19,808 nt of DNA from a virus (Duplodnaviria > Heunggongvirae > Uroviricota > Caudoviricetes). The position numbers were made by a program, and so were the translations under genes. Location of the stretch: IMG/VR virus record IMGVR_UViG_2617270952_000001. One strand, given 5' to 3'. The stretch's first letter is position 1, and each line of letters starts with the position of its first letter. Shown in pieces: positions 2,088 through 19,808 of this stretch. Under the pieces are notes generated by a model, which saw only the letters and a list, made by a program, of their open reading frames with translations, was not told the DNA's origin and ran no database searches.

Positions 2088-2341
2088 ATTAATGGATTAA
2101 CTATGTCGGTTAAACGACCAGCCAACTGAAAAAGCGGAAACCTGATTACAGGTTGCCAGATAAGGCAATGAGCTACCTGGCGCGGAACGGACTGATAAGT
2201 ATGGGGAATGTTTTACGATGAACCTTTAGACTAAAGAGTTTGTAACGCTATGTAAGTGATTTTTTCTGGTTTAGATATTTATATGTCCGGCCAAATTGAG
2301 GTGTGTTTAAATGTAATTGCACATTGATTGTAGGAGGAATA

Positions 2342-2521
2342 ATGAAAAACGCATTGCAGTTTTTGTTTGTTGCGTTCTGGTTGTTCGCATCATGTATGCC
2401 CATCATCTTCACAGCAAGGTATATGGAAAAAGTTGATGTTTTGATATTAATATTTGGATATATAAATGCCCTTTTTTTAGGGGTGTTCATGGCGGTCATG
2501 TGCATTGAATACTGGCGGTAA
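2342..2521 (+). CDS. Small (59 aa) predicted two-helix membrane protein
   Basis: AGGAGG at 2332-2337 precedes ATG 2342. The protein is MKNALQFLFVAFWLFASCMPIIFTARYMEKVDVLILIFGYINALFLGVFMAVMCIEYWR, with two hydrophobic stretches. Confidence 0.55.
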   Translation: MKNALQFLFVAFWLFASCMPIIFTARYMEKVDVLILIFGYINALFLGVFMAVMCIEYWR

Positions 2522-2576
2522 ATACAGCGAACTCCATTGGTTTAGTTGGATATTTACTGTGCTGGACAAAAACGGT

Positions 2577-2604
2577 TTGCGGGGAAATCTTAGTTAAGTA
2601 GAAT
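2577..2604 (+). promoter_or_regulatory. Candidate sigma-70 promoter of the hok-like toxin mRNA
   Basis: TTGCGG (2577-2582), a 16-nt spacer, then TAGAAT (2599-2604). This places the start near 2611, where similarity to the 5' end of hok mRNAs (GCTTGAGGCT.TCTGCCTC) begins. Confidence 0.4.
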
Positions 2605-2610
2605 GACTGC

Positions 2611-2795
2611 GGGTGCTTGAGGCTATCTGCCTCGGGCATGGACACCAACGGCAGATAGAGAAAAGCCCCAGTTAACATTACGCGTCCTGCAAGACGCTTA
2701 ACATTAATCTGAGGCCAATTTCATGCTAGACACATGTAGGTTAGCCTCTTACGTGCCGAAAGGCACGGAGAAGCAGGCTATTGTTAACACCAAGC
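2611..2795 (+). pseudogene. hok/mok-type type I toxin locus, 5' half (leader, mok-like ORF, SD and first codons), cut by the IS
   Basis: The 15-nt string GGAGAAGCAGGCTAT (2767-2781) is identical to the SD/start region of hokD at 6056-6070, but is followed by T (ATT) instead of G (ATG). The leader resembles plasmid R1 hok mRNA as I recall it (GCTTGAGGCTaTCTGCCTC, GGCAGAtAGA, AGCCCC, ATGcTAGaCACAT, TAGCCTCTTAC). The mok-like ORF ATG 2723 now runs into the IS and stops at 2798-2800. Confidence 0.6.
2658..2735 (-). ncRNA. Sok-like antisense RNA (approximate ends)
   Basis: The minus strand reads ...GTGTCTAGCATGAAATTGGCCTCAGATTAATGTTAAGCGTCTTGCAGGACGCGTAATGTTAACTGGGGCTTTTCTCT. It is complementary to the mok start region, contains a hairpin (GCGTC-TTGCAG-GACGC), and ends in a U-rich tail in the position of R1 Sok (...ACGGGGCUAUCUUCUUU, from memory). 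Confidence 0.4.
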
Positions 2796-4222: not shown

Positions 4223-4336
4223 TCGCGTTTCTGGTGTTCATTTTCGGGTGGTTTGTTACTTGTTTTACCGGGGATATGCCAGAAACGCGCTGAGTCAGTC
4301 TGGGCGGTGCGCGTAATGAGGCGTTATGGTAAATAG
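4220..4336 (+). pseudogene. hok-like toxin gene, 3' part (degenerate, frame-disrupted)
   Basis: A hydrophobic stretch (VAFLVFIFGWFVTCFTGD) aligns with the HokE transmembrane segment ending in GD. The C-terminal ...ICQKRAESVWAVRVMRRYGK* (stop 4334-4336; GGTAAATAGC versus R1 GGTAAGTAGC) lies in another frame. At least one frameshift is therefore present, in addition to ATT in place of ATG. Confidence 0.5.
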
Positions 4337-4562
4337 CCTATGCTAATGTCCGCTAAGAGCAAGAAGCGGAAGTTGGCAGTTTTGTGGACTGTCCCCACAA
4401 AAGTGACTACAGAAATAGTTGCAATTCATAATTGATCATGGGTTGTCAGTTAAACTCGTGGCGATTTAAATAGACTAATTGGGAGTGCGTCCATTACTTA
4501 TATCTTGTAATGTTAACTATCAGAAATGATACAAAGATAATATGTCTTTAAAGAAAAGGCTG

Positions 4563-4591
4563 ATGGCGAAAAGTGGCCCGATGAGGGCCAC
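4563..4591 (-). terminator. Rho-independent terminator downstream of flxA
   Basis: On the minus strand: GTGGCCC-TCATC-GGGCCAC followed by TTTTCGCC. Confidence 0.6.
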
Positions 4592-4605
4592 AATACGGCT
4601 GTCAC

Positions 4606-4938
4606 TTAGACGTAAATATCAATGGTGCCAGCGGTATTTGTATCGTCTTTTTTCTCTTCTTTTTTATCAGGCTGAACTGTCGCGTCTTCATTCTTTTTCT
4701 CTGCCTGCTGCCTTAACAACTGCTCCAGTTGAGCCCAGAGGCTTTCAATTTGCTTCTGTACCAATGCAGCCATTTCTTTTTTCTGCTGTGTCGTCATCCC
4801 CTCTTCCGATGAGATTTTCCCAAGCTTTTCAGTCAGCACCTGAATTTGTCTTGTGATTTTGGCTATTTCTGATGTTCCTTCCGGGGCGGAGTTGTTTGAA
4901 ATAACGGTTGAGGTATTTCCCTGAATTGTGACAGACAT
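4606..4938 (-). CDS. flxA: FlxA (Qin prophage, FliA-regulated protein)
   Basis: The 110-aa ORF MSVTIQGNTSTVISNNSAPEG...TAGTIDIYV is recognised as K-12 FlxA. An AAGGAG SD and a sigma-28 promoter lie upstream. Confidence 0.9.
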   Translation of the reverse strand: MSVTIQGNTSTVISNNSAPEGTSEIAKITRQIQVLTEKLGKISSEEGMTTQQKKEMAALVQKQIESLWAQLEQLLRQQAEKKNEDATVQPDKKEEKKDDTNTAGTIDIYV

Positions 4939-4961
4939 AGATTTCTCCTTTTAAAAAAGCA

Positions 4962-4988
4962 CTATCGGCATGCACAAAAAAATCTTTA
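4962..4988 (-). promoter_or_regulatory. Sigma-28 (FliA) class 3 promoter of flxA
   Basis: The minus strand reads TAAAGATT-N11-GCCGATAG, against the consensus TAAAGTTT-N11-GCCGATAA. Confidence 0.75.
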
Positions 4989-5069
4989 ATCGTATTTCTT
5001 GTGTCATTAATTGTTTGATGTTCAGATTGTTTTCCTCGCGGGCTGGCGCGCCTCAGAAAGTAAAGCTTG

Positions 5070-5097
5070 TTGACAGGGGTAAACGTTCGGCAATAAT
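5070..5097 (+). promoter_or_regulatory. Orphan near-consensus sigma-70 promoter pointing right (antisense to ydfV, towards relB)
   Basis: TTGACA (5070-5075), a 16-nt spacer, then AATAAT (5092-5097). No credible plus-strand ORF follows. Confidence 0.35.
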
Positions 5098-5140
5098 TTT
5101 CTGCCGCATGCGGGTGTTGCATAAAACGTGTTACGTTCCT

Positions 5141-5446
5141 TTATCGACAGGTCAGGTCACCGCTCACCCGCCGACGAGAAAGCAACACTGACATGCTAAA
5201 GCAAAAAATAGATGAATAAGTTGAGTTGTGCATATGTAGCCTGACCGTCACAAAGTATATGGTGTCTGTACCAGTAAGATGATGGCCGGACTCTTTAAAA
5301 ACGAGCTGACCTGCACAATACAGGATGGACTTAGCAATGGCTGCTCCTGGCACAAAGCGGACAGTGATCACCGTTCTTACGACTACTTTCTGACTTCCTT
5401 CGTGACTTGCCCTAAGCATGTTGTTGTGCGATACTTGTAATGACAT
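5141..5446 (-). CDS. ydfV: YdfV (Qin prophage, uncharacterised)
   Basis: The 101-aa ORF matches my recollection of K-12 YdfV. Its coding reality is doubtful because its start lies inside the relBE operator. Confidence 0.5.
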   Translation of the reverse strand: MSLQVSHNNMLRASHEGSQKVVVRTVITVRFVPGAAIAKSILYCAGQLVFKESGHHLTGTDTIYFVTVRLHMHNSTYSSIFCFSMSVLLSRRRVSGDLTCR

Positions 5447-5459
5447 TTGTAATTACAAG
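5432..5459 (+). promoter_or_regulatory. relBE operator (relO) / promoter region
   Basis: Palindromic repeats ACTTGTAATGACATTTGTAATTACAAG lie immediately upstream of the relB SD (AGAGG) and ATG 5471. Confidence 0.7.
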
Positions 5460-5470
5460 AGGTGTAAGAC

Positions 5471-5710
5471 ATGGGTAGCATTAACCTGCGTATTGACGAT
5501 GAACTTAAAGCGCGTTCTTACGCCGCGCTTGAAAAAATGGGTGTAACTCCTTCTGAAGCGCTTCGTCTCATGCTCGAGTATATCGCTGACAATGAACGCT
5601 TGCCGTTCAAACAGACACTCCTGAGTGATGAAGATGCTGAACTTGTGGAGATAGTGAAAGAACGGCTTCGTAATCCTAAGCCAGTACGTGTGACGCTGGA
5701 TGAACTCTGA
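5471..5710 (+). CDS. relB: RelB antitoxin
   Basis: The 79-aa MGSINLRIDDELKARSYAALEKMGV...VRVTLDEL is recognised as K-12 RelB. It overlaps relE by TGATG. Confidence 0.95.
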   Translation: MGSINLRIDDELKARSYAALEKMGVTPSEALRLMLEYIADNERLPFKQTLLSDEDAELVEIVKERLRNPKPVRVTLDEL

Positions 5711-5997
5711 TGGCGTATTTTCTGGATTTTGACGAGCGGGCACTAAAGGAATGGCGAAAGCTGGGCTCGACGGTACGTGAACAGTTGAAAAAGAAGCTGG
5801 TTGAAGTACTTGAGTCACCCCGGATTGAAGCAAACAAGCTCCGTGGTATGCCTGATTGTTACAAGATTAAGCTCCGGTCTTCAGGCTATCGCCTTGTATA
5901 CCAGGTTATAGACGAGAAAGTTGTCGTTTTCGTGATTTCTGTTGGGAAAAGAGAACGCTCGGAAGTATATAGCGAGGCGGTCAAACGCATTCTCTGA
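5710..5997 (+). CDS. relE: RelE mRNA interferase toxin
   Basis: The 95-aa MAYFLDFDERALKEWRKLGSTVREQLKKKL...AVKRIL is recognised as K-12 RelE. Confidence 0.95.
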   Translation: MAYFLDFDERALKEWRKLGSTVREQLKKKLVEVLESPRIEANKLRGMPDCYKIKLRSSGYRLVYQVIDEKVVVFVISVGKRERSEVYSEAVKRIL

Positions 5998-6068
5998 ACC
6001 AAAGCATGACATCTCTGTTTCGCACCGAAGGTGACACTTCTGCTTTGCGTTGACAGGAGAAGCAGGCT

Positions 6069-6224
6069 ATGAAGCAGCAAAAGGCGATGTTAATCGCCCT
6101 GATCGTCATCTGTTTAACCGTCATAGTGACGGCACTGGTAACGAGGAAAGACCTCTGCGAGGTACGAATCCGAACCGGCCAGACGGAGGTCGCTGTCTTC
6201 ACAGCTTACGAACCTGAGGAGTAA
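6069..6224 (+). CDS. hokD: HokD (RelF) small membrane toxin, 51 aa
   Basis: ATG 6069 sits behind GGAGAAG. The protein MKQQKAMLIALIVICLTVIVTALVTRKDLCEVRIRTGQTEVAVFTAYEPEE* is below the ORF-track length cut-off. Confidence 0.9.
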   Translation: MKQQKAMLIALIVICLTVIVTALVTRKDLCEVRIRTGQTEVAVFTAYEPEE

Positions 6225-6292
6225 GAGACCCGGCGGGGGAGAAATCCCTCGCCACCTCTGATGTGGCAGGCATCCTCAACGCACCCGCACTT

Positions 6293-6318
6293 AACCCGCT
6301 TCGGCGGGGTTTTGTTTT
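6293..6318 (+). terminator. Rho-independent terminator of relB-relE-hokD
   Basis: CCCGC-TTCG-GCGGG followed by GTTTTGTTTTTATTTT. Confidence 0.7.
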
Positions 6319-6440
6319 TATTTTCAACGCGTTTGAAGTTCTGGACGGTGCCGGAATAGAATCAAAAATACTTAAGTAGCGCGCAGGGATAAGAGGGATG
6401 GTCCCTTAAAGGGGAGAGCTAATTATCCGGAAGGATTCTG

Positions 6441-6692
6441 ATGATGAACATCGAAGAACTGCGTAAAATTTTTTGTGAAGATGGCCTCTATGCTGTGTGC
6501 GTTGAAAATGGAAATCTTGTTAGTCATTACCGCATTATGTGTTTGCGAAAGAATGGGGCTGCGTTAATTAATTTTGTGGATGCTCGGGTCACGGACGGAT
6601 TTATCTTGCGCGAAGGTGAGTTTGTCACTTCATTACAGGCATTGAAAGAGATCGGAATAAAAGCTGGCTTTTCTGCTTTTTCAGGAGAATAA
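6441..6692 (+). CDS. rem: Rem (Qin prophage, uncharacterised)
   Basis: The 83-aa MMNIEELRKIFCEDGLYAVCVENGNLVSHYRIMCLRKNG... is recognised as K-12 Rem. Confidence 0.85.
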   Translation: MMNIEELRKIFCEDGLYAVCVENGNLVSHYRIMCLRKNGAALINFVDARVTDGFILREGEFVTSLQALKEIGIKAGFSAFSGE

Positions 6693-6758
6693 ACTCATCT
6701 ACAATCTTGCGCGGGGCTGAACTCCCGCTGAGTAACACCGTGCCACCGGAGAAAACCG

Positions 6759-7158
6759 ATGGCACGCAACGCAAAATATTACAATTCTGATAATTCGCCC
6801 GTTCTTGCCTGCACGCACGGGCGGTATTCTCACGCATTCAAGTCTGAATGGTTCCAGCACCCTCCATGCACTGCAGAACAGGCCGAATGGCTGATTCATT
6901 CTTACCGCAGGCGCGGGTTCGAGGTTAAGAAAGCTCTCAGTCTCGACTATGCCAGCCGACGATCCGCATCATCTGATTGGTCACGGGCAGGGCGGAATGG
7001 GAACAAAAGCACATGATCTCTTTGTGTTGCCTTTGTGCAGAAAGCATCACAACGAGCTGCATACGGATACAGTGGCATTTGAAGATAAGTATGGCTCCCA
7101 ACTGGAGCTGATATTTCGTTTTATCGATCGCGCGCTGGCAATTGGCGTACTGGCGTAA
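6759..7158 (+). pseudogene. ydfU: ydfU-like (DUF968/HNH-like) gene, split over two frames and much shorter than I recall for K-12 ydfU
   Basis: ATG 6759 with a GGAGA SD opens frame 0 (stop 7014-7016). The conserved C-terminal module PADDPHHLIGHGQGGMGTKAHDLFVLPLCRKHHNELH (His-rich HNH-like) is in frame +1 (open 6895..7158). Only about 480 bp lie between rem and quuQ. Confidence 0.5.
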
Positions 7159-7171
7159 GTGGAGAACGAGC

Positions 7172-7924
7172 ATGAACCTTGAAGCCTTACCAAAATATTA
7201 CTCCCCAAAATCTCCAAAATTGAGCGATGACGCTCCAGCGACAGGCACCGGTTGTTTAACAATTACGGATGTAATGGCAGCGCAGGGGATGGTGCAGTCG
7301 AAAGCACCACTTGGGTTGGCCTTATTTCTGGCAAAAGTTGGTGTTCAGGACCCTCAGTTTGCGATTGAAGGCCTGCTAAATTACGCGATGGCACTGGATA
7401 ACCCGACATTGAACAAATTGAGTGAAGAAATCCGGTTACAGATTATTCCTTACCTCGTGAGTTTTGCCTTTGCTGATTACTCCAGGTCTGCGGCAAGTAA
7501 GGCTCGCTGTGAGCATTGTTCAGGTACGGGATTTTATAATGTATTGCGCGAAGTGGTGAAACACTACAGACGCGGGGAATCTGTAATCAAGGAAGAATGG
7601 GTGAAGGAACTATGTCAGCATTGCCATGGTAAGGGCGAAGCCAGCACAGCGTGCAGAGGGTGTAAGGGTAAAGGGATTGTTCTGGATGAAAAAAGAACCC
7701 GGTTTCATGGCGTACCGGTATATAAGATTTGTGGGCGTTGTAATGGAAACCGGTTTAGTCGTTTACCGACCACGCTGGCACGACGTCATGTCCAGAAGCT
7801 GGTACCAGACCTGACCGATTATCAGTGGTATAAGGGGTATGCGGACGTCATTGGTAAACTGGTAACAAAGTGCTGGCAGGAAGAAGCATACGCGGAAGCG
7901 CAATTGAGGAAGGTGACGAGATAA
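7172..7924 (+). CDS. quuQ: Late-gene antiterminator Q (Qin type)
   Basis: The 250-aa MNLEALPKYYSPKSPKLSDDAPATG...AQLRKVTR is recognised as K-12 QuuQ (YdfT). It is followed by a late promoter and terminator. Confidence 0.9.
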   Translation: MNLEALPKYYSPKSPKLSDDAPATGTGCLTITDVMAAQGMVQSKAPLGLALFLAKVGVQDPQFAIEGLLNYAMALDNPTLNKLSEEIRLQIIPYLVSFAFADYSRSAASKARCEHCSGTGFYNVLREVVKHYRRGESVIKEEWVKELCQHCHGKGEASTACRGCKGKGIVLDEKRTRFHGVPVYKICGRCNGNRFSRLPTTLARRHVQKLVPDLTDYQWYKGYADVIGKLVTKCWQEEAYAEAQLRKVTR

Positions 7925-7955
7925 ATGATTTTTGCTGAAGATGGCGACATGATGT

Positions 7956-7984
7956 TTGCATTTTTCAAAAAATATGGATAAAAT
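7956..7984 (+). promoter_or_regulatory. pR'-like late promoter
   Basis: TTGCAT (7956-7961), a 17-nt spacer, then TAAAAT (7979-7984), located 30 nt after the Q stop. Confidence 0.65.
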
Positions 7985-8029
7985 TTTTTCAACGATGGGC
8001 TTTGTATACCCGACGTTAAGAAAAAGTAG

Positions 8030-8060
8030 AAAACCCGCTGATGAGCGGGTTTTGTGCTTT
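8030..8060 (+). terminator. tR'-like intrinsic terminator (target of Q antitermination)
   Basis: AAACCCGC-TGATGA-GCGGGTTT followed by TGTGCTTT, about 65 nt downstream of the predicted start. Confidence 0.7.
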
Positions 8061-8345
8061 AAATGGGGCAATGGTAATGTTGAATCTCATCCCGGGACTC
8101 ATGTCTGTTAACTTATTATTTAGCTGGTGACTTGGTTATTTGCCTGATGTTTAAAATGTTTTCTTCCAGTACAATGTCCCTAAACACAATGAGTCTGCTT
8201 ATTATATTATTAGCAGAGCTATTACGGCCAAAGTACAGCATAAGCTTTTAAAGCCAATCAACCAGTCATCAAGACAGACGGGGTTATTCATAAAAACTCT
8301 CCATGTGTGATCCGATGGGGCCTGAAATTAAAGCTTTAATATAGC

Positions 8346-8558
8346 TCATGAAAGGTAAACATTGGCAGCTGAAGGGCCACGCAGACCATTTATCCGGCAA
8401 AATTCCACGCGTAATCCGGTGGTAATTTCTTCTGCATCGCGGAGATTGAGCGCTGAAACATGAAGCTGGACATCGATACGACCATCGGATGGGGTGATAA
8501 GACCCTTGCCGCTTTTGCCGTCAAAGGTTTTGACAATTCCTGTCATTTTACGGGACAA
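8346..8558 (-). CDS. cspF: CspF, CspA-family protein
   Basis: The 70-aa [45 protein letters not shown]... is recognised as K-12 CspF. Confidence 0.9.
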
Positions 8559-8662
8559 AAAAATTCCTTAATACTGATAACTTGGCGCACTATACACACG
8601 TTCCTGAAGAAAGCTATAGTTTTTTGATGGGGTTGAAGATGGCTGGATGTCTAAAATAAACA

Positions 8663-8716
8663 TTGCTTCATATGTTCAACTATGCGTTAATGATTGCGTC
8701 GGTTTGAAGAACAGAC
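8663..8716 (+). promoter_or_regulatory. cspB promoter and cold-box at the start of a long 5' UTR
   Basis: TTGCTT (8663-8668), a 17-nt spacer, then GTTAAT (8686-8691), then GGTTTGAAGAACAGAC (8701-8716). This parallels the cspA GGTTTGACGTACAGAC cold box. GCCGAAAGGC (8830-8839) lies upstream of the SD, as in cspA. Confidence 0.6.
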
Positions 8717-8858
8717 GATATACGAAGTAGTTTACTAAAGCAGTTCTCATTTCAGGTGTTATTCACTTATTCCTTCTTTGAGTCTCTCCAATTAAGTACG
8801 AAGTCGTTTCTGTTATGCAAACCATTTATGCCGAAAGGCTCAAGTTAAGGAATGTAGA

Positions 8859-9074
8859 ATGTCAAATAAAATGACTGGTTTAGTAAAATGGTTTAACGCT
8901 GATAAAGGTTTCGGCTTTATTTCTCCTGTTGATGGTAGTAAAGATGTGTTTGTGCATTTTTCTGCGATTCAGAATGATAATTATCGAACCTTATTTGAAG
9001 GTCAAAAGGTTACCTTCTCTATAGAGAGTGGTGCTAAAGGTCCTGCAGCAGCAAATGTCATCATTACTGATTAA
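8859..9074 (+). CDS. cspB: CspB cold-shock protein
   Basis: The 71-aa [38 protein letters not shown]... carries RNP1/RNP2 motifs and is recognised as K-12 CspB. Confidence 0.95.
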
Positions 9075-9185
9075 AATTCATCGCTCGTCTGTATACGATA
9101 ACGAAGAAGGCTGATGCCTGAGTAGAGATACGGACAGAGTAGTGAATATTGGATCTCTTTAATAAAAAGTAAGGAGGTCCAATAC

Positions 9186-9221
9186 ATGAAACAATGGCTA
9201 GCATATTTGGCAAAATCTTAA
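9186..9221 (+). CDS. Candidate 11-codon mini-ORF (MKQWLAYLAKS) behind a perfect SD
   Basis: AAGGAGG (9171-9177) lies 8 nt before ATG 9186. I recognise no homolog, so this is speculative. Confidence 0.25.
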   Translation: MKQWLAYLAKS

Positions 9222-9355
9222 TCAGGAAAAGTATGCTAACCATTGTGGTGAAGTGCAGGTTTGCTGCATGAATAGTTTTACAGCAGAAGCTAACTGCTGG
9301 CATGGCAAAACAAAGTGCGTAAGTGGATGACTCCCACAAAAAGCACCACAATCTC

Positions 9356-9379
9356 AAACCCGCTCAGGCGGGTTTTTTA
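9356..9379 (+). terminator. Rho-independent terminator
   Basis: AAACCCGC-TCAG-GCGGGTTT followed by TTTATT. Confidence 0.7.
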
Positions 9380-9437
9380 TTATCTGCTTTAAATATATTA
9401 TTAAAATATAAAAAATACTTGTTACTAATAAAATCAA

Positions 9438-9608
9438 TCAGGCTACAGCTTTAAGATTTGTCTGGAATACTTTGTTGCAATGAGGGCAGATCAAAAGGGC
9501 ACCTTTTTGTACTCTTGAAAAACTGTGTTCTGACTCTTGGGTGCAGTTTGGGCAGGAACATTTAACGAGATAATTACGGCGTGATTTTGAGTTTTTACGT
9601 TCTGACAT
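9438..9608 (-). CDS. ynfU: Small zinc-ribbon protein (56 aa), YnfU-like
   Basis: ATG 9608 sits behind an AGGA SD. The protein MSERKNSKSRRNYLVKCSCPNCTQESEHSFSRVQKGALLICPHCNKVFQTNLKAVA has CxxC...CxxC. The name is from memory of K-12 small-protein annotation. Confidence 0.6.
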   Translation of the reverse strand: MSERKNSKSRRNYLVKCSCPNCTQESEHSFSRVQKGALLICPHCNKVFQTNLKAVA

Positions 9609-9827
9609 AGGCTTTTCCTGTATAAATGGCCGTATACAGTACACTAAATATGAAAACATTTCTCGTATTATTATTTTATATATGACTTTCTTTCAAAATA
9701 ATTACCCACATTTTTAATGTGTATGTTTTTTTAGCGCCGTTGAGAACAACGTGTGCTGTCAAAACTACCCCGTAGACTCCGATCTTTTCAAACATATTGC
9801 ACCATCCGTGTACATCGGGGTGAGGAT

Positions 9828-10043
9828 ATGAAATCAATGGATAAGTTAACAACAGGTGTTGCCTATGGCACATCGGCGGGTAATGCTGGTTTCTGGGCAT
9901 TGCAGTTACTCGATAAAGTAACTCCGTCACAGTGGGCTGCAATCGGTGTGCTGGGTAGCCTGGTTTTTGGCCTGCTGACGTATCTGACAAATCTTTATTT
10001 CAAGATTAAAGAAGACAGGCGTAAGGCTGCGAGAGGAGAGTAA
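9828..10043 (+). CDS. essQ: Phage-21-type pinholin with dual start (MKSMDK)
   Basis: The 71-aa [71 protein letters not shown] is close to S21 as I recall it. It has two TM segments and Met1/Met4 starts. Confidence 0.9.
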
Positions 10044-10047
10044 TCCA

Positions 10048-10355
10048 ATGACTCAAGACTATGAACTGGTTGTGAAAGGAGTCCGTAATTTTGAGAATAA
10101 AGTTACGGTAACTGTAGCCTTACAGGACAAAGAACGCTTTGACGGTGAAATTTTTGACCTGGATGTCGCCATGGACCGTGTTGAAGGAGCTGCGCTGGAG
10201 TTTTATGAGGCAGCAGCCAGAAGGAGCGTCCGGCAAGTCTTCCTGGAAGTAGCAGAAAAATTGTCAGAAAAAGTTGAGTCTTATCTGCAGCATCAGTACT
10301 CCTTTAAGATTGAAAATCCTGCCAATAAGCACGAGCGTCCTCATCATAAATATCT

Positions 10356-10359
<4 letters not shown>
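10048..10359 (+). CDS. ydfR: YdfR (DUF1327)
   Basis: The 103-aa ORF lies between the holin and endolysin genes. Its stop overlaps the rrrQ start (ATGA). Confidence 0.8.
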
Positions 10360-11383
<1,024 letters not shown>

Positions 11384-11565
11384 GGTAATATTAAATCGGA
11401 ACATTTACATCGCGGAATGTAAAATTTAAATAAAAAGGACTCTTCCATGAGCCAAAATTCCTGAAATCTTAAGGGTAAGATAAAAGGTCTTAATCAGAAT
11501 GACACGTTTTATTAATAAATAAAGCTATTCTTTCATTGCTGTGTTTTTCTTTACAAAAGTAATCC

Positions 11566-11616
11566 TTGCTATGGGTGGTTAATCATGCGTTAATGGTGTT
11601 CTGGTTTGTTACAAAT
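11566..11616 (+). promoter_or_regulatory. cspI promoter and cold-box-like element
   Basis: TTGCTA (11566-11571), a 17-nt spacer, then GTTAAT (11589-11594), then GGTTTGTTACAAAT (11603-11616). This is the same architecture as upstream of cspB. Confidence 0.55.
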
Positions 11617-11745
11617 TTATCTGAAGCAGTCATTGTTATAATTTTATTATTTGTACCTCTTGAGATTTCCTTGTTGGTTTTTCTCTCTGATATTTTTTTT
11701 CGGACCATTCTGCCCAAGGGCTAATTTCTTCAAAAGGTAATAATT

Positions 11746-11958
11746 ATGTCTAACAAAATGACTGGTTTAGTGAAATGGTTTAACCCTGAAAAAGGTTTTG
11801 GTTTCATCACGCCGAAAGATGGCAGCAAAGATGTGTTTGTCCATTTCTCAGCAATTCAGAGCAACGATTTCAAAACATTAACTGAGAATCAGGAAGTTGA
11901 ATTTGGTATTGAGAACGGACCTAAAGGTCCTGCCGCTGTTCATGTAGTGGCGCTTTGA
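11746..11958 (+). CDS. cspI: CspI cold-shock protein
   Basis: The 70-aa [45 protein letters not shown]... is recognised as K-12 CspI. Confidence 0.95.
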
Positions 11959-11968
11959 GGTAGACAAT

Positions 11969-12157
11969 ATTACAAACCATATTCACTTTAGATGCCCGTG
12001 TTGTCATGGTTCCCAGTATAGAACATCATCTTTTGATGTTTCTGACATGAATCCTTTCGGGGCAAAATGTATCTTTTGTAAATCAATGATGATTACATTT
12101 GATAATATTTCACAATACTTAAATGCCAGCCGTCTGTCGTTGGATTTAAAAAAGTGA
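11969..12157 (+). CDS. Zinc-ribbon small protein ORF lacking a canonical start (possible ATT start or start-loss pseudogene)
   Basis: The frame is open from 11948 and reads (I)TNHIHFRCPCCHGSQYRTSSFDVSDMNPFGAKCIFCKSMMITFDNISQYLNASRLSLDLKK* (TGA 12155-12157). CxxC...CxxC is present. GAGG (11957-11960) lies 8 nt before ATT 11969, and the first ATG is codon 25 counting from ATT 11969, downstream of the first CxxC. A terminator follows. Confidence 0.4.
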   Translation: MTNHIHFRCPCCHGSQYRTSSFDVSDMNPFGAKCIFCKSMMITFDNISQYLNASRLSLDLKK

Positions 12158-12162
12158 AAATG

Positions 12163-12186
12163 AAGGCTCCTTCGGGAGCTTTTTTG
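12163..12186 (+). terminator. Rho-independent terminator
   Basis: AAGGCTCC-TTCG-GGAGCTT followed by TTTTG. Confidence 0.7.
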
Positions 12187-12229
12187 CTTGGTGTCTATTC
12201 GATGGATACTCACATACTACGGTAACATC

Positions 12230-12460
12230 ATGAAAAAAATCATAGTTTTTTTTAACTCTGAACCAGCAGTGGTAGTGCCAGCGATGACTGGAGTTAACAC
12301 CATCATGCGTGAATATCCAAATGGCGAAAAAACACACCTTACTGTAATGGCCGCAGGGTTTCCATCTCTGACCGGAGATCATAAAGTCATTTATGTAGCC
12401 GCGGATCGACATGTTACTTCAGAAGAAATTCTGGAAGCAGCAATAAGGCTCTTGAGTTGA
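12230..12460 (+). CDS. Hypothetical protein (76 aa)
   Basis: ATG 12230 opens MKKIIVFFNSEPAVVVPAMTGVNTIMREYPNGEKTHLTVMAAGFPSLTGDHKVIYVAADRHVTSEEILEAAIRLLS. The SD is weak and I did not recognise the family. Confidence 0.45.
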   Translation: MKKIIVFFNSEPAVVVPAMTGVNTIMREYPNGEKTHLTVMAAGFPSLTGDHKVIYVAADRHVTSEEILEAAIRLLS

Positions 12461-12631
12461 TTTGATGCTATTGCATTGATAATTCAGGAAAATTCTCTTT
12501 GTCTGTTTGTGTAAAATTTAGACTATCGTATGTTGATTATTGCGATGTTTCATCTTATCTTTTACACGTTTGCACCATATAATCGACTTACTGTGTAACT
12601 GGAAAGTCATAACAGACTAAAAGAGGAAATG

Positions 12632-12805
12632 ATGAATATTGAAAACTTAAAAACAAAAGCAGAAGCAGATATTTCTGAATATATAACAAAAAAAATTATT
12701 GAACTTAAGAAAAAGACCGGGAAAGAAGTTACCAGTATTCAGTTTACCGCACGGGAAAAAATGACGGGTCTTGAAAGCTATGATGTCAAGATTAATTTAA
12801 TCTGA
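12632..12805 (+). CDS. gnsB: Gns-family protein (GnsA/GnsB-like)
   Basis: MNIENLKTKAEADISEYITKKIIELKKKTGKEVTSIQFTAREKMTGLESYDVKINLI has the conserved FTAREKMTGLESYDVKI core. An AAGAGGAAA SD is present. There are tandem ATGs at 12629 and 12632. The sequence diverges from my recollection of K-12 GnsB. Confidence 0.7.
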   Translation: MNIENLKTKAEADISEYITKKIIELKKKTGKEVTSIQFTAREKMTGLESYDVKINLI

Positions 12806-12956
12806 TGTATTCAATAATAAAATTTATCCATAAACCTCGTTTTTACGGGGTTTTGTTATATTTGAATGGTTCCGAATATCTAAATCACAATTGTTGATGG
12901 TTTTTATTAAACCAATGCAGTCCGGCTCAGGAGTGAGAGAAGCCGGACGTTATGGT

Positions 12957-13367
12957 TTAGCGTGGTAAGATCTGTGTAGTTTTCTGGATGCTTTCAGTAA
13001 ATAGTAATGAATTATCAAAGGTATAGTAATATCTTTTTTGTTCGTGGATATTTGTAACCCACCGAAAAACTCCTGCTTTAGCAAGGTTTCTTCTGTATTC
13101 CTGAAATGTGATCTCTCTGGATTTCAGCTTATTAGAGGTCGTTTCTATAAGATGCCTATCCTTTGAAAATTTGACAGACACAATGTTTTTTAGGCCCTTT
13201 AATAACACTGTATTATCATTTTTTAATACAATATGAACATTCTCTGTGGCTAAATAGTAAATGTAATGTGAGACATTGTGACGTTTTAGCTCAGAATAAA
13301 ACCATTGATAGTTTAAATCGTTTCGAACTTTATCAAATATTTGTTTAAAAATGACTACCTGATCCAT
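12957..13367 (-). CDS. ydfO: YdfO (DUF1398)
   Basis: The 136-aa [45 protein letters not shown]... is recognised as K-12 YdfO. Confidence 0.85.
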
Positions 13368-13424
13368 AGATAAACCTTCCATGTGATATGAGGGGGCGTA
13401 GTCTGCACGATTATCTAAATTGCT

Positions 13425-13658
13425 TCAATCTGGTCTGACCTGTTTTCTGAGCAATTCAGTAATGTCACTCTTTTCTTTGTTTGCTTCAGAAGAAACTCTT
13501 TTTTCTGAGCACAGTCTCCGGCGGCAGGCTTCAATGACCCAGGCTGAGAAATTCCCGGACCCTTTTTGCTCAAGAGCGATGTTAATTTGTTCAATCATTT
13601 GGTTAGGAAAGCGGATGTTGCGGGTTGTTGTTCTGCGGGTTCTGTTCTTCGTTGACAT
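13425..13658 (-). CDS. ynfO: YnfO (homolog of the small ORF at the right end of lambda)
   Basis: 77 aa, MSTKNRTRRTTTRNIRFPNQMIEQINIALEQKGSGNFSAWVIEACRRRL.... The flanking DNA matches the lambda right arm end as I recall it. Confidence 0.75.
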   Translation of the reverse strand: MSTKNRTRRTTTRNIRFPNQMIEQINIALEQKGSGNFSAWVIEACRRRLCSEKRVSSEANKEKSDITELLRKQVRPD

Positions 13659-13857
13659 GAGGTTGCCCCGTATTCAGTGTCGCTGATTTGTATTGTCTGA
13701 AGTTGTTTTTACGTTAAGTTGATGCAGATCAATTAATACGATACCTGCGTCATAATTGATTATTTGACGTGGTTTGATGGCCTCCACGCACGTTGTGATA
13801 TGTAGATGATAATCATTATCACTTTACGGGTCCTTTCCGGTGATCCGACAGGTTACG

Positions 13858-13869
13858 GGGCGGCGACCT
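13858..13869 (+). other. cosN, the 12-nt lambda cohesive-end sequence
   Basis: GGGCGGCGACCT is preceded by ...TCCGACAGGTTACG and followed by CGCGGGTTTTCGCTATTTATG. This is the joined lambda right and left ends. Confidence 0.9.
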
Positions 13870-13904
13870 CGCGGGTTTTCGCTATTTATGAAAATTTTCC
13901 GGTT

Positions 13905-14030
13905 TAAGGTGTTTCCGTTCTTCTTCGTCGTAACTTAATGTTTTTATTTAAAATACCCCCTGAAAAGAAAGGAAACGACAGGTGCTGAAAGCGGGCTTTT
14001 TGGCCTTTGTCGTTTCCTTTCTCTGTTTTT
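13905..14030 (+). promoter_or_regulatory. cosB terminase (Nu1) binding region with R3, R2 and R1 repeats
   Basis: GTTTCCGTTCTTCTTCG (about 13911-13927), GAAAGGAAACGACAG (inverted, about 13967-13981) and TGTCGTTTCCTTTCTC (about 14008-14023) are present, as in lambda. Confidence 0.75.
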
Positions 14031-14046
14031 GTCCGTGGAATGAACA

Positions 14047-14592
14047 ATGGAAGTCAACAAAAAGCAGCTGGCTGACATTTTCGGTGCGAGTATCCGTACC
14101 ATTCAGAACTGGCAGGAACAGGGAATGCCCGTTCTGCGAGGCGGTGGCAAGGGTAATGAGGTGCTTTATGATTCTGCCGCCGTCATAAAATGGTATGCCG
14201 AAAGGGATGCTGAAATTGAGAACGAAAAGCTGCGCCGGGAAGTTGAAGAACTGCGGCAGGCCAGCGAGACAGATCTCCAGCCAGGGACTATTGAGTACGA
14301 ACGCCATCGACTTACGCGTGCGCAGGCCGACGCACAGGAGCTGAAAAATGCCAGAGACTCCGCTGAAGTGGTGGAAACCGCATTCTGTACTTTCGTGCTG
14401 TCGCGGATCGCAGGTGAAATTGCCAGTATTCTCGACGGGATCCCCCTGTCGGTGCAGCGGCGTTTTCCGGAACTGGAAAACCGACATGTTGATTTCCTGA
14501 AACGGGATATCATCAAAGCCATGAACAAAGCAGCCGCGCTGGATGAACTGATACCGGGGTTGCTGAGTGAATATATCGAACAGTCAGGTTAA
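14047..14592 (+). CDS. nu1: Terminase small subunit Nu1 (NohA/NohQ equivalent), full length
   Basis: The 181-aa MEVNKKQLADIFGASIRTIQNWQEQGMPVLRGGGKGNEVLYDSAAVIKWYAERD... is near-identical to lambda Nu1 from memory. Confidence 0.95.
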   Translation: MEVNKKQLADIFGASIRTIQNWQEQGMPVLRGGGKGNEVLYDSAAVIKWYAERDAEIENEKLRREVEELRQASETDLQPGTIEYERHRLTRAQADAQELKNARDSAEVVETAFCTFVLSRIAGEIASILDGIPLSVQRRFPELENRHVDFLKRDIIKAMNKAAALDELIPGLLSEYIEQSG

Positions 14593-15703
14593 CAGGCTGC
14601 GGCATTTTGTCCGCGCCGGGCTTCGCTCACTGTTCAGGCCGGAGCCACAGACCGCCGTTGAATGGGCGGATGCCAATTACTATCTCCCGAAAGAATCCGC
14701 ATACCAGGAAGGGCGCTGGGAAACACTGCCCTTTCAGCGGGCCATCATGAATGCGATGGGCAGCGACTACATCCGCGAGGTGAATGTGGTGAAGTCTGCC
14801 CGTGTTGGTTATTCCAAAATGCTGTTGGGTGTTTATGCCTACTTCATAGAGCATAAGCAGCGCAACACACTTATCTGGTTGCCGACGGATGGTGATGCCG
14901 AGAACTTTATGAAAACCCACGTTGAGCCGACCATCCGTGATATTCCTTCGCTGCTGGCGCTGGCCCCGTGGTATGGCAAAAAGCACCGGGATAACACGCT
15001 CACCATGAAGCGTTTCACCAATGGGCGTGGCTTCTGGTGCCTGGGCGGTAAAGCGGCAAAAAACTACCGTGAAAAGTCAGTGGATGTGGCGGGGTATGAT
15101 GAACTTGCTGCCTTTGATGAGGATATTGAACAGGAAGGCTCTCCGACGTTCCTGGGCGATAAGCGTATTGAAGGCTCTGTCTGGCCAAAATCCATCCGTG
15201 GCTCCACGCCCAAAGTGAGAGGCACCTGCCAGATTGAGCGTGCAGCCAGTGAATCCCCGCATTTTATGCGTTTTCATGTTGCCTGCCCGCACTGCGGGAA
15301 GGAGCAGTACCTTAAATTTGGCGACAAAGAGACGCCGTTTGGCCTCAAATGGATGCCGGATGATCCCTCCAGCGTGTTTTATCTCTGTGAGCATAATGCC
15401 TGCGTCATCCGTCAGCAGGAGCTGGACTTTACTGATGCCCGTTATATCTGCGAAAAGACCGGGATCTGGACCCGTGATGGCATTCTCTGGTTTTCGTCAT
15501 CCGGTGAAGAGATTGAACCGCCTGACAGTGTGACCTTTCACATCTGGACGGCGTACAGCCCGTTCACCACCTGGGTGCAGATTGTCAAAGACTGGATGAA
15601 GACGAAAGGGGATACTCCGTGTTTGAGCAGTCACTGTTGCGGTATATCGCTGCCGGGCTGGGTGTCTCGTATGAGCAGCTTTCCCGGAATTACGCCCAGA
15701 TGA
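14567..15703 (+). pseudogene. A: Terminase large subunit A, N-terminal ~349 codons only, fused out of frame to B-derived sequence
   Basis: The GTG 14567 start opens MNISNSQVNRLRHFVRAGLRS...KDWMKTKGDT, matching lambda gpA (641 aa) to about 15615. It then reads 28 unrelated codons to TGA 15701-15703. Confidence 0.9.
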
Positions 15704-16164
15704 GCTACTCCACGGCACGGGCCAGCGCGAACGAGTCGTGGGCGCACTTTATGGGGCGGCGAAAATTCGTCGCATCCCGTCAGGCGAGCCAGATGTTTCT
15801 GTGCTGGCTGGAAGAGGCCATCGTTCGCCGCGTGGTGACGTTACCTTCAAAAGCGCGCTTCAGCTTTCAGGAAGCCCGCAGCGCCTGGGGGAACTGTGAC
15901 TGGATAGGCTCCGGTCGTATGGCTATCGATGGTCTGAAAGAAGTACAGGAAGCGGTGATGCTGATAGAAGCCGGACTGAGCACCTACGAGAAAGAGTGCG
16001 CAAAACGCGGCGACGACTATCAGGAAATTTTTGCCCAGCAGGTCCGTGAAACGATGGAGCGCCGCGAAGCCGGTCTTAAACCGCCCGCCTGGGCGGCAGC
16101 GGCATTTGAATCCGGGCTGCGACAATCAACAGAGGAGGAGAAGAGTGACAGCAGAGCTGCGTAA
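15616..16164 (+). pseudogene. B: Portal protein B, C-terminal ~182 codons only
   Basis: SVFEQSLLRYIAAGLGVSYEQLSRNYAQMSYSTARASANESW...EEEKSDSRAA* matches the C-terminus of lambda gpB (533 aa). No N-terminal part or own start context is present. Confidence 0.9.
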
Positions 16165-17464
16165 TCTCCCGCATATTGCCAGCATGGCCTTTAATGAGCC
16201 GCTGATGCTTGAACCCGCCTATGCGCGGGTTTTCTTTTGTGCGCTTGCAGGCCAGCTTGGGATCAGCCGCCTGACGGATGCAGTATCCGGCGACAGCCTG
16301 ACTGCCGGAGAGGCACCCGCGGCGCTGGCGTTATCCGGTGATGATGACGGACCACGACAGGCCCGCAGTTATCAGGTCATGAACGGCATCGCCGTGCTGC
16401 CGGTGTCCGGTACGCTGGTCAGCCGGACGCGGGCGCTGCAGCCGTATTCGGGAATGACCGGTTACAACGGCATTATCGCCCGTCTGCAACAGGCTGCCAG
16501 CGATCCGATGGTGGACGGCATTCTGCTGGATATGGACACACCGGGCGGGATGGTGGCGGGAGCATTTGACTGTGCTGACATCATCGCCCGTGTGCGAGAC
16601 ATAAAACCGGTATGGGCGCTGGCCAACGACATGAACTGCAGTGCAGGTCAGCTGCTTGCCAGCGCCGCCTCCCGGCGTCTGGTCACGCAGACCGCCCGGA
16701 CAGGCTCCATCGGCGTCATGATGGCTCACAGTAATTACGGTGCTGCGCTGGAGAAACAGGGCGTGGAAATCACGCTGATTTACAGCGGCAGCCATAAGGT
16801 GGATGGCAACCCCTACAGCCATCTACCGGATGAGGTCCGGGAAACACTGCAGTCCCGGATGGATGCAACCCGCCGGATGTTTGCACAGAAGGTGTCGGCA
16901 TATACCGGCCTGTCCGTGCAGGCTGTGCTGGATACCGAGGCTGCAGTGTACAGCGGTCAGGAGGCCATTGATGCCGGACTGGCTGATGAACTTGTGAACA
17001 GTACCGATGCGATCACCGTCATGCGTGATGCACTGGATGCACGTAAATCCCGTCTCTCAGGAGGGCGAATGACCAAAGAGACTCAATCAACAACTGTTTC
17101 AGCCACTGCTTCGCAGGCTGACGTTACTGGCGTGGTGCAAGCGACGGAGGGCGAGAACGCCAGCGCTGCGCAGCCGGACGTGAACGCGCAGATCACCGCA
17201 GCGGTTGCGGCAGAAAACAGTCGCATTATGGGGATCCTCAACTGTGAGGAGGCTCACGGACGCGAAGAACAGGCATGCGTGCTGGCCGAAACCCCCGGTA
17301 TGACCGTGGAAACGGCCCGCCGTATTCTGGCCGCAGCACCACAGAGTGCACAGGCGCGCAGTGACACTGCGCTGGATCGTCTGATGCAGGGGGCACCGGC
17401 ACCGCTGGCTGCAGGTAACCCGGCATCTGATGCCGTTAACGATTTGCTGAACACACCAGTGTAA
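16145..17464 (+). CDS. C: Head maturation protease / scaffold C (ClpP/SppA-type), full length
   Basis: The GTG 16145 start opens (M)TAELRNLPHIASMAFNEPLMLEPAYARVFF...NDLLNTPV. It is 439 aa, with the 20-nt overlap with the B end seen in lambda. Confidence 0.9.
   Translation: MTAELRNLPHIASMAFNEPLMLEPAYARVFFCALAGQLGISRLTDAVSGDSLTAGEAPAALALSGDDDGPRQARSYQVMNGIAVLPVSGTLVSRTRALQPYSGMTGYNGIIARLQQAASDPMVDGILLDMDTPGGMVAGAFDCADIIARVRDIKPVWALANDMNCSAGQLLASAASRRLVTQTARTGSIGVMMAHSNYGAALEKQGVEITLIYSGSHKVDGNPYSHLPDEVRETLQSRMDATRRMFAQKVSAYTGLSVQAVLDTEAAVYSGQEAIDAGLADELVNSTDAITVMRDALDARKSRLSGGRMTKETQSTTVSATASQADVTGVVQATEGENASAAQPDVNAQITAAVAAENSRIMGILNCEEAHGREEQACVLAETPGMTVETARRILAAAPQSAQARSDTALDRLMQGAPAPLAAGNPASDAVNDLLNTPV
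16859..17464 (+). CDS. nu3: Scaffold protein Nu3, nested in frame in the 3' part of C
   Basis: The in-frame ATG 16859 (MDATRRMFAQKV...) corresponds to the lambda nu3 start position as I recall it (714 nt into C). Confidence 0.6.
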   Translation: MDATRRMFAQKVSAYTGLSVQAVLDTEAAVYSGQEAIDAGLADELVNSTDAITVMRDALDARKSRLSGGRMTKETQSTTVSATASQADVTGVVQATEGENASAAQPDVNAQITAAVAAENSRIMGILNCEEAHGREEQACVLAETPGMTVETARRILAAAPQSAQARSDTALDRLMQGAPAPLAAGNPASDAVNDLLNTPV

Positions 17465-17473
17465 GGGATGTTT

Positions 17474-17806
17474 ATGACGAGCAAAGAAACCTTTACCCAT
17501 TACCAGCCGCTGGGCAACAGTGACCCGGCTCATACCGCAACCGCGCCCGGCGGATTGAGTGCGAAAGCGCCTGCAATGACCCCGCTGATGCCGGACACCT
17601 CCACCCGTAAGCTGGTTGCGTGGGATGGCACCACCGACGGTGCTGCCGTTGGCATTCTTGCGGTTGCTGCTGACCAGACCAGCACCACACTGACGTTCTA
17701 CAAGTCCGGCACGTTCCGTTATGAGGATGTGCTCTGGCCGGAGGCTGCCAGCGACGAGACGAAAAAACGGACCGCGTTTGCCGGAACGGCAATCAGCATC
17801 GTTTAA
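17474..17806 (+). CDS. D: Head decoration protein D
   Basis: The 110-aa [39 protein letters not shown]...GTAISIV is near-identical to lambda gpD. Confidence 0.95.
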
Positions 17807-17823
17807 CCTGACCCTTCATCACT

Positions 17824-17849
17824 AAAGGCCGCCTGTGCGGCTTTTTTTA
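17824..17849 (+). terminator. Hairpin plus T-run between D and E (as in lambda)
   Basis: AGGCCGC-CTGT-GCGGCTT followed by TTTTTAC. Confidence 0.55.
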
Positions 17850-17861
17850 CGGGATTTTTTT

Positions 17862-19715
17862 ATGTCGATGTACACAACCGCCCAGCTGCTGGCGGCAAAT
17901 GAGCAGAAATTTAAGTTTGATCCGCTGTTTCTGCGTCTCTTTTTCCGTGAGAGCTATCCCTTCACTACGGAGAAAGTCTATCTCTCACAAATTCCGGGAC
18001 TGGTAAACATGGCGCTGTACGTTTCGCCGATTGTTTCCGGTGAGGTTATCCGTTCCCGTGGCGGCTCCACCTCTGAATTTACGCCGGGATATGTCAAACC
18101 CAAGCATGAGGTGAATCCGCAGATGACCCTGCGTCGCCTGCCGGATGAAGATCCGCAGAATCTGGCGGACCCGGCTTACCGCCGCCGTCGCATCATCATG
18201 CAGAACATGCGTGACGAAGAGCTGGCCATTGCTCAGGTCGAAGAGATGCAGGCAGTTTCTGCCGTGCTCAAGGGCAAATACACCATGACCGGTGAAGCCT
18301 TCGATCCGGTTGAGGTGGATACCGGAGCTTTGTGGAAGCGTACAGCCGTCGGATTAACGAATTTCGCCTGGATCAACACATCCGGCGATACATATGATAT
18401 TTACGTTGAGATTGGCAATTATGCGACGAGTGTAAATATCCATTGGGATTGTACTACAAATGCGTCAGTTTCTATTTATACCTCGCCAACATATTCAGCG
18501 AGTAAGCCTTCCAGCGTTACCGGTGGTGTTGTTTATACGATGTATAGCTCACATCAGAAACCTACACCATCAGATATTGGAGCGCTGCCAACGACTGGAG
18601 GGACTATTTCAGGTCCGTTGTCTGTTACTGATGGGATCACCGGGGCACTGAAGGGGAACGCCGATACCGCGACGAAACTTGCGGCAGCCCCAAAAATTAA
18701 CGGTGTTAAGTTTGATGGCTCGGCGGATATTAACCTCACGCCGGAAAATATTGGTGCATTTGCCCGACGTTCGACGGGGGCTTATGCGGATTCGGATGGA
18801 GCCGTTCCCTGGAATGCCGAATCAGGCGCTTACAATGTCACCCGCTCTGGCAACAGCTATATTCTGGTTAACTTCTATACCGGAGTCGGAAGTTGCCGGA
18901 CCTTGCAGATGAAGGCACATTACAGAAATGGAGGTCTGTTCTACCGTTCCTCAAGAGATGGCTATGGTTTTGAGGAAGACTGGGCAGAAGTTTATACCTC
19001 GAAAAATCTTCCACCAGAAAGCTACCCAGTCGGCGCACCAATCCCGTGGCCATCAGATACCGTTCCGTCTGGTTATGCCCTGATGCAGGGGCAGACTTTT
19101 GACAAATCTGCTTACCCGAAACTTGCAGCCGCTTATCCGTCAGGTGTGATCCCTGATATGCGTGGCTGGACGATTAAGGGCAAACCTGCCAGTGGTCGGG
19201 CCGTATTGTCTCAGGAACAGGACGGCATTAAATCGCACACCCACAGCGCCAGCGTATCCAGTACGGATTTGGGGACGAAAAACACATCGTCGTTTGATTA
19301 CGGAACCAAATCCACGAATAACACCGGGGCGCATACCCATAGTATTAGCGGGACTGCAAATAGTGCCGGTGCGCACCAACACAAGAGTTCCGGTGCATTT
19401 GGTGGCACGAACACGAGCATTTTCCCTAATGGTTATACCGCGATTTCAAATCTAAGCGCGGGGATTATGAGCACAACAAGCGGTAGTGGCCAGACTCGTA
19501 ATGCAGGGAAGACATCATCAGATGGTGCTCATACCCACTCGCTGTCCGGCACTGCTGCAAGCGCAGGCGCACACGCACATACTGTCGGTATTGGTGCTCA
19601 TACGCACTCCGTTGCGATTGGTTCACATGGACATACCATCACCGTTAACGCTGCTGGTAACGCGGAAAACACCGTCAAAAACATCGCATTTAACTATATT
19701 GTGAGGCTTGCGTAA
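17862..19715 (+). pseudogene. In-frame chimera: major capsid protein E codons 1 to ~153 fused to the distal ~464 codons of a side tail fibre (Stf) gene
   Basis: [28 protein letters not shown]...[10 protein letters not shown] matches lambda gpE up to nt 18321. [17 protein letters not shown]...[40 protein letters not shown] is StfR/lambda-Stf-like. The reading frame stays open across the junction. Confidence 0.85.
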
Positions 19716-19808
19716 TGGCATTCAGAATGAGTGAACAACCACGGACCATAAAAATTTATAATCTGCTGGCCGGAACTAATGAATTTATTGGTGAAGGTGA
19801 CGCATATA
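19715..19808 (+). CDS. tfa: Tail fibre assembly protein Tfa (3' partial at window edge)
   Basis: The start overlaps the stf stop (TAATG). [31 protein letters not shown] matches the lambda Tfa N-terminus. Confidence 0.9.

Follow-up and report, generated by a model that had tools for sequence, protein, structure and literature searches.

A terminase-to-portal deletion junction in the late operon of a lambda-like defective prophage of Escherichia coli

The element and its gene content

The window, i.e. the whole stretch of 19,808 nucleotides analysed here, is the entire contig JNMB01000053.1 of the draft short-read assembly GCA_000700205.1 from Escherichia coli 3-105-05_S3_C2. The sequence represents a defective lambdoid prophage. 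At least 99.9% identity is shared by positions 215-15615 with prophages at the Qin site, located between rspB and ydfJ in complete genomes such as those of B379, PCP06021 and BS74R-D. The Qin-type gene set is present (flxA-relBE-hokD-rem-ydfU-ydfT-cspBF-essD-rrrQ-cspI-gnsB-ydfO-ynfO-nohA). A lambda-type head module extends rightwards from cos, with lambda base 1 corresponding to position 13858. The cosN site (13846-13869, plus strand) reads GGTTACG|GGGCGGCGACCT, the same as in lambda. It is followed by nu1, also named nohA, which encodes a terminase small subunit of full length (14047-14592, plus strand, 181 aa; Pfam Phage_Nu1, E = 3.9e-101, columns 1-164 of 164). Next come a truncated terminase large subunit gene A and a remnant of the portal gene B, joined at the junction J3 that is the subject of this study. 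The downstream head genes had been described as intact in the initial annotation, and coordinate transfer together with the list of open reading frames (ORFs) agrees: the S49 protease/scaffold gene C (16145-17464, plus strand, 439 aa, also recognized by Pfam), the nested nu3 (16859-17464, plus strand) and the head decoration protein gene D (17474-17806, plus strand, 110 aa) are all of full length. Point-mutational decay is absent throughout, and the whole window is at least 99.9% identical to intact relatives.

Compared with B379, the window contains three further clean junctions (J1, J2 and J4) and one insertion of an IS element. J1 (587-596) is a 5.8-kb deletion from exo' to 'DUF977, which removes dicB-dicA-dicC-ydaT. 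Its junction reads CTCCGGATAC, and the parents are CTCCGGATAC and CTCCGGCTAC. J2 (6948-6950) is a 927-bp deletion within ydfU with the microhomology TAT. J4, at 18321/18322, reads ...GTGGATA|CCGGAG and yields the in-frame fusion E'::stf (17862-19715, plus strand), composed of approximately the first 153 codons of E and the C-terminal part of the side tail fibre gene. The fusion ORF of 626 aa contains Phage_cap_E and Collar domains. An IS600 end inserted in the prophage exonuclease gene occupies positions 1-214, and this IS600 copy explains the left end of the contig.

Anatomy of the A-B junction

BLASTN against lambda (NC_001416) aligned the region in exactly two collinear pieces. Positions 13858-15615 correspond to lambda 1-1759 with 97.56% identity, and positions 15610-18321 to lambda 3883-6594 with 97.57% identity, so that the divergence is equal on either side of J3. 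Sequence after the junction (15616-18321) represents lambda 3889-6594. The segment lost at J3 is thus lambda 1760-3888, or 2,129 bp. The initial annotation had recognized a deletion from A into B with a loss of about 2.1 kb at roughly these lambda coordinates. The BLASTN comparison and a direct reading bore out the junction and its break points to the base.

Read directly, the window at J3 is ...AAAGGGGATAC|TCCGTGTTTGAG. The left parent in lambda A is ...AAAGGGGATAC|GGGAAAACG, and the right parent in lambda B is ...ATAACGGCTAC|TCCGTGTTT. The crossover lies at 15610-15615. The trinucleotide TAC (15613-15615), earlier proposed as the shared crossover, proved to be an exact microhomology. It is part of an imperfect repeat matching at five of six positions, GG(A/C)TAC, with GGATAC on the A side and GGCTAC on the B side. 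J3 retains one copy of TAC, and the mismatched base upstream is the left variant from A. Neither an IS end nor an att core, a recombinase site or foreign DNA was seen in the junction sequence read directly. Both flanks are collinear with the B379 locus (L003), up to its position 25150 and then from 27280 onward.

A microhomology of 3 nt is expected at approximately 5% of random junctions by an analytic estimate, with which a simulation agrees; the match alone therefore tells little about the mechanism. The right parent site is situated where the 10-nt loop meets the 3' stem in a predicted hairpin, ACACGGA-TAACGGCTAC-TCCGTGT, with a calculated energy of -12.4 kcal/mol (z = -3.2 on the plus strand and -4.1 on the minus strand). 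No significant structure was predicted at the left parent site.

Coding consequences

The ORF at 14567-15703 encodes a 378-aa fusion of gpA residues 1-350 with 28 out-of-frame codons. The A' portion (14567-15616, plus strand) is identical to lambda gpA at 347 of 350 residues in BLASTP. The tail of 28 codons (15617-15703, plus strand) is B sequence read out of frame and ends with the stop codon TGA at 15701-15703, as had been noted before; it is visible in the BLASTP alignment of the fused ORF with gpA. The joint had been placed at about codon 349 of A before; the last retained codon is 350, because the change from ACG to ACT is synonymous. GpA_ATPase, at residues 47-285, is the sole Pfam match in A' (E = 4.1e-51). 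The C-terminal nuclease domain and the protein end (gpA residues from about 351 to 641) are missing. Since residue 350 is the last of the 641 gpA residues to be aligned and Pfam returned no match to a nuclease domain in A', the A' gene is a truncated pseudogene.

The portal remnant 'B comprises codons 352-533 and the stop codon (15616-16164, plus strand) and is identical to gpB at 180 of 182 residues in BLASTP. Phage_portal_2 is retained only at profile columns 308-354 of 354, i.e. the last 47. Residues 1-351 of gpB are gone, and the junction does not supply the remnant with a start codon of its own. The loss of the A C-terminus, all of W and the B N-terminus, already proposed in the initial annotation, is confirmed by these limits, A' ending at residue 350 and 'B starting at residue 352. 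J3 inactivates the terminase, gpW and the portal. Deprived of its nuclease domain and C-terminus, the terminase cannot cut cos. As gpW is also lost and only an untranslated C-terminal third of the portal is left, the element cannot package DNA.

Distribution, undeleted relatives and relative age

J3 was not found in phage records, where the best 25 of 178 matching records all aligned in two pieces. It was also absent from 5,426 complete E. coli genomes searched with a 601-nt junction probe; 3,375 records matched, and none covered 80% or more of the probe. An exact junction 30-mer had no match in GTDB species-representative genomes or in JGI metagenome contigs. The same 378-aa fusion is encoded on contigs of two independent sequencing runs, SRR30494792 and SRR7230694, which match the window at 99.9% or more across J3. 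The agreement of two independent read-set assemblies indicates that J3 is real, and its absence from complete genomes that it is rare. It represents a clean lineage marker for a small clone, comprising strain 3-105-05_S3_C2 and the two read sets.

These data also bear on the suggestion that J3 is an assembly artefact, or else a natural variant of an A-like gene from another phage. The window is a draft short-read contig, and nothing further speaks for such an origin. Against it stand the identical fusion on contigs from two unrelated runs and the separate alignment of A and B sequence in the phage records (the best 25 of 178) and in the 3,375 E. coli records. In addition, the ORF beyond codon 350 consists of B sequence out of frame. 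A continuous A-like gene spanning 15600-15640, which the initial annotation had named as the observation that would overturn the deletion, was encountered neither among those best-matching phage records nor in the E. coli genomes. An artefact, unless common to all three read sets, or a variant gene is accordingly very improbable.

Undeleted forms are frequent. At least 80% of the nu1-E module was present in 3,150 records. A survey for the undeleted form, proposed earlier, led to B379 (NZ_CP090456), which is nearly the parent: its Qin-site prophage has a contiguous A-W-B and is almost identical on both flanks. It differs from the window by one mismatch in 13400-15615 (2,216 bases) and by two in 15616-16281 (approximately 670 bases). 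B379, 2H10 and lambda share with the window the order cos-nu1-A-W-B-C-nu3-D-E and a flank identity of 97.6-99.98%; unlike the window, they retain the 2,129 bp lost at J3. Over the whole flanks, identity to B379 is 99.98% to the left of J3 and 98.16% to the right. This step was considered as a sign of two joined elements and rejected, as the additional mismatches cluster in a patch of gene C. The dense patch (16282-16996) has about 35 differences from B379 and looks like a recombinational mosaic. It is ordinary lambdoid mosaicism, not a switch of relative at J3.

Further rearrangements were observed beside J3 on the SRR7230694 contig (L006; sites 1-26, 1643-1650 and 1776-1796). They comprise a 996-bp deletion within gene C with the microhomology CGCA and two inversion-type joints, one to a reverse-complemented tfa and one to a reverse-complemented nu1. 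Both inversion-type joints are at the nu1 sequence CTGATA|CCGGGG, of which gene C holds a 9-nt inverted near-copy (17295-17306).

The occurrence in the 5,426 complete E. coli genomes differs between the rearrangements: J1 was present in 90, the IS600 junction in 45 including BS74R-D, J4 in five, and J2 and J3 in none. On these counts J3 would be younger than J1, the IS600 insertion and J4, a relative timing that is partly supported. The initial annotation had regarded J3 as recent in comparison with the decay at the left end. This agrees with the counts for J1 and IS600. It does not extend to J2, a left-half junction as private as J3, which likewise occurs in no genome. The intact genes C, nu3 and D, on which the earlier argument was built, are uninformative, since the identity of at least 99.9% to intact relatives extends over the whole window and provides no clock.

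Chromosomal context

Five complete genomes carry J4, namely BS74R-D, IAL7250, IAL7252, IAL7254 and IAL7255. In all of them the prophage with J4 occupies att-lambda, flanked by ybhC and bioA, and not the Qin site. These prophages resemble the window in J4, in the right arm (100% identity over 3,581 nt) and in the sequence of nu1 and the 5' part of A. They differ in having other, larger deletions between A and B, and in DLP12-type lysis genes to the left. Having lost A-B sequence by other deletions, they are without the J3 junction.

The J3/J4 module might hence stem from an att-lambda prophage and have been connected to a Qin-type left arm by a mis-join of the contig or by an inversion between Qin and att-lambda. 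J3 would still be real in that case. This alternative is a serious one, to which somewhat less than an even chance is given. In its favour, the att-lambda prophage of IAL7255 matches positions 16228-19808 (3,581 nt) with 100.000% identity, and positions 13522-14880 are likewise identical to it. The att-lambda prophages combine J4 with deletions overlapping J3, from 14880 to 16228 in IAL7255 and from 14553 to 16605 in BS74R-D. The Qin-site prophage of BS74R-D, in turn, equals window positions 1-14553 at 99.9%, including IS600 and J1, and then continues as nohA-J'-stf'-tfaQ. As both prophages match 13522-14553, this cos-nu1 segment is an exact 1-kb repeat common to two prophages of opposite chromosomal orientation in these relatives. 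Moreover, the start of Logan contig L005, which comes from a strain with J3, lies exactly 30 nt before position 14553. This distance equals k-1 if k = 31 is assumed, and would imply a second nu1 copy with another continuation. On the other side, the Qin-site prophages of B379 and PCP06021 have a complete lambda-like module of head and tail genes, so that the architecture of the window is legitimate. The immediate flanks of J3 match the A-W-B of the B379 Qin-site prophage almost perfectly. An assembler normally halts at a 1-kb repeat with two entries and two exits, and the passage through it suggests pairing support or a single copy. Across 13522-14553, the link between the Qin-type arm on the left and the J3/J4 module may be real, inversion-derived or a mis-join; J3 is unaffected.

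Recurrent TA-centred break points

The sequence GGATAC lies exactly at the crossover in three of the four window junctions (591-596, 15610-15615 and 18317-18322), and it occurs just seven times on the plus strand of the window. The comparison was extended to independent deletions of the same module in complete genomes for which both parents are known (n = 27). This sample consists of a first set (n = 15) and a second set declared beforehand (n = 12, with 24 break points). TA is part of the microhomology in 14 of the 27 junctions (p approximately 1e-13), compared with 3.8% of simulated junctions having at least 2 nt of microhomology. TA is also the rarest dinucleotide in this region (4.2%). The frequency at the crossover was 10/15 in the first set (p = 2e-11) and 4/12 in the second (p = 8e-4). 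The prediction of more than 50% TA crossovers in the second set failed with this result, which is still above the 3.8% null. Parent sites aligned on TA have the consensus C-G-G-N-TA-Y-S-S-G, which is enriched in comparison with all TA sites on the same strand (G at position -2, p = 7e-5; G at position +4, p = 1e-4).

Break points are reused. Six of the 24 in the second set fall within 4 nt of an earlier one, where 0.22 are expected (p approximately 8e-8). One example is a site in nu1, GAACTGATA|CCGGGG (14545-14556), which is intact in the window and served as break point in at least six other rearrangements. This CTGATA|CC site (14553) was reused in both prophages of BS74R-D, in WCHEC020031, HCM-26C-1 and ATCC 8739, and in SRR7230694. 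A second nu1 break, CCAGCCA(G)| (14283-14292), is common to NCTC13148 and SCZE5. In A, the break GGGGATAC(G)| (15610-15616) is shared by J3 and XJ23PTE1. In B, GGGTA(T)| is common to 2017.11.01CC and APEC E123, and GGC|TAC| (27274-27280 of the B379 locus) holds the right break of J3 and the left break of MEI1O2-23. The break GGTGGATA| in E (18317-18322) is common to J4 and PI24, the break CTGGATA| in J to NCTC13148 and LR-46, and the break GGGG(A/T)TTA| in stf to J4 and E32. At 16218-16238, gene C contains the sequence CGCGGGTTTTC, an 11-mer that duplicates the right flank of cosN exactly. The IAL7255 deletion has its right break (GGGTT|TTC) within this copy. Prior reports of microhomology junctions in cryptic prophages were not found in a literature search.

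Origin of the deletion

J3 is very probably the scar of one illegitimate, short-homology deletion, which removed 2,129 bp from the late operon in a defective prophage of the lambda-like kind. Its ancestor would have had a contiguous A-W-B, as B379 still has. Breaks would have occurred at ...GGGGATAC in A and at ...ACGGCTAC in B. The most likely route is a strand misalignment, or a nick followed by annealing, while the DNA is single-stranded. A 3' end terminating in ...GGATAC would anneal anew to GGCTAC 2.1 kb downstream, and this target would lie in the loop of the strong predicted hairpin, against its 3' stem. A short-homology, hairpin-assisted deletion is most likely the correct reading of the anatomy. 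In view of the 5% chance rate of a 3-nt match, the choice between slippage and break-and-join can only be inferred.

In E. coli, short direct repeats give rise to spontaneous deletions by slipped mispairing, often aided by hairpins. J3 resembles this classical model in keeping one repeat copy, in the longer imperfect repeat around it and in the hairpin at one end point. It differs in the repeat being exact over 3 nt only and in its end points, which independent events have used with other partners; such reuse is not expected under the classical model. Against plain slippage counts that other independent deletions also used both parent sites of J3, XJ23PTE1 having its break at the same A site and MEI1O2-23 a break 3 nt away in B. 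This is a hint of site-specific breakage.

J3 agrees in element family and in outcome with the cryptic prophages Qin (nohA-stfQ) and DLP12 (nohD-A'-tfa) of K-12. These have clean late-operon deletions from nu1 or A into tail-fibre genes, with microhomologies of 2-3 nt (TAT for the DLP12 joint of A' to tfa, TA for the Qin dicC/ydfW joint). J3, in contrast, is much smaller (2.1 kb), lies within the head genes, leaves C, nu3 and D intact and is confined to few isolates. It is ordinary prophage decay, one further instance of a well-known kind.

Possible enzymes at the break sites

Alternatively, a sequence-specific nick or cut at G-flanked TA sites of the type GGNTAY initiated the deletion, and the microhomology is only a trace of the re-joining. 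This is considered rather unlikely. It would account for the excess of TA at the crossovers over the null, for the G-flanked consensus at the parent sites, for the reuse of earlier sites in the second set and for GGATAC at three of the four window junctions. The right break of LR-46 is also in line with it, being located directly after GGATA without detectable microhomology to the left parent. However, 13 of the 27 junctions are without TA, and no fitting enzyme was found among RAYT, IS30, IS5, IS629 and the Qin att core.

A possible but unproven candidate is the lambda-type terminase, with action at sequences similar to the left half of cosN, GGTTACG^GGGG. The sequences GGGGATACGGG, CTGATACCGGGG, GGTGGATATGGG and ACGGCTACTCCG would be candidate break sites for such an activity. 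Similarity to the left half of cosN averaged 7.12 of 14 compared with 6.25 in the null (SD of the mean 0.20), on the plus strand only, and controls with the opposite strand and with the right half of cosN were at the null level. This comparison was picked after the consensus had been seen and with about 15 other candidates tried, and its p-value is inflated by the post hoc choice. Terminase requires a conserved CG at the nick and anchoring by cosB (PMC4669245). Only three sites read TACG and have this CG. J1, J2 and the K-12 dicC/ydfW junction are left of cos, outside the packaging path. Given the post hoc choice, the three CG sites and the junctions left of cos, an enzyme-seeded origin is possible and unproven, and the short-homology deletion remains the preferred explanation of J3.

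Other activities were compared with the junctions and rejected. The att core of the Qin integrase, TTATGGATTT, is unrelated to the J3 junction and to the GGNTAY motif. For secondary sites of lambda Int, considered by reasoning only, the T-rich overlap region is absent, and the CAACTT near J1 is 16 nt off. IS30 generates a 2-bp target duplication, but its lambda hot spot LHS, GGCGA|TAGTG, fits poorly. The real insertions of IS5 (target YTAR) and of IS1203/IS629 (AAG target duplication) in relatives do not match. RAYT/TnpA-REP requires a CT cleavage site, a strict GTAG and a bulged REP hairpin. The crossover geometry at sites of the Pin invertase does not fit. Gyrase was set aside, as the published text gives no usable central consensus for it.

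Significance

J3 itself is of little import; it adds one more inactivating step to a defective prophage. The recurrent TA-centred break points are the sole part that might repay more work. The late-region decay of lambda-like prophages in E. coli could be non-random, with recurrent breaks at a few GGNTAY sites, among them both J3 parents, the nu1 site CTGATA|CCGGGG and the E site GGTGGATA|, produced by sequence-specific nicking or cleavage through terminase or a host enzyme, although this is regarded as improbable. If true, the deletions would be self-inflicted and would remove the terminase genes. A specific DNA-breaking activity of this kind would explain mechanistically why packaging genes are lost fast and in a stereotyped manner when prophages are domesticated.
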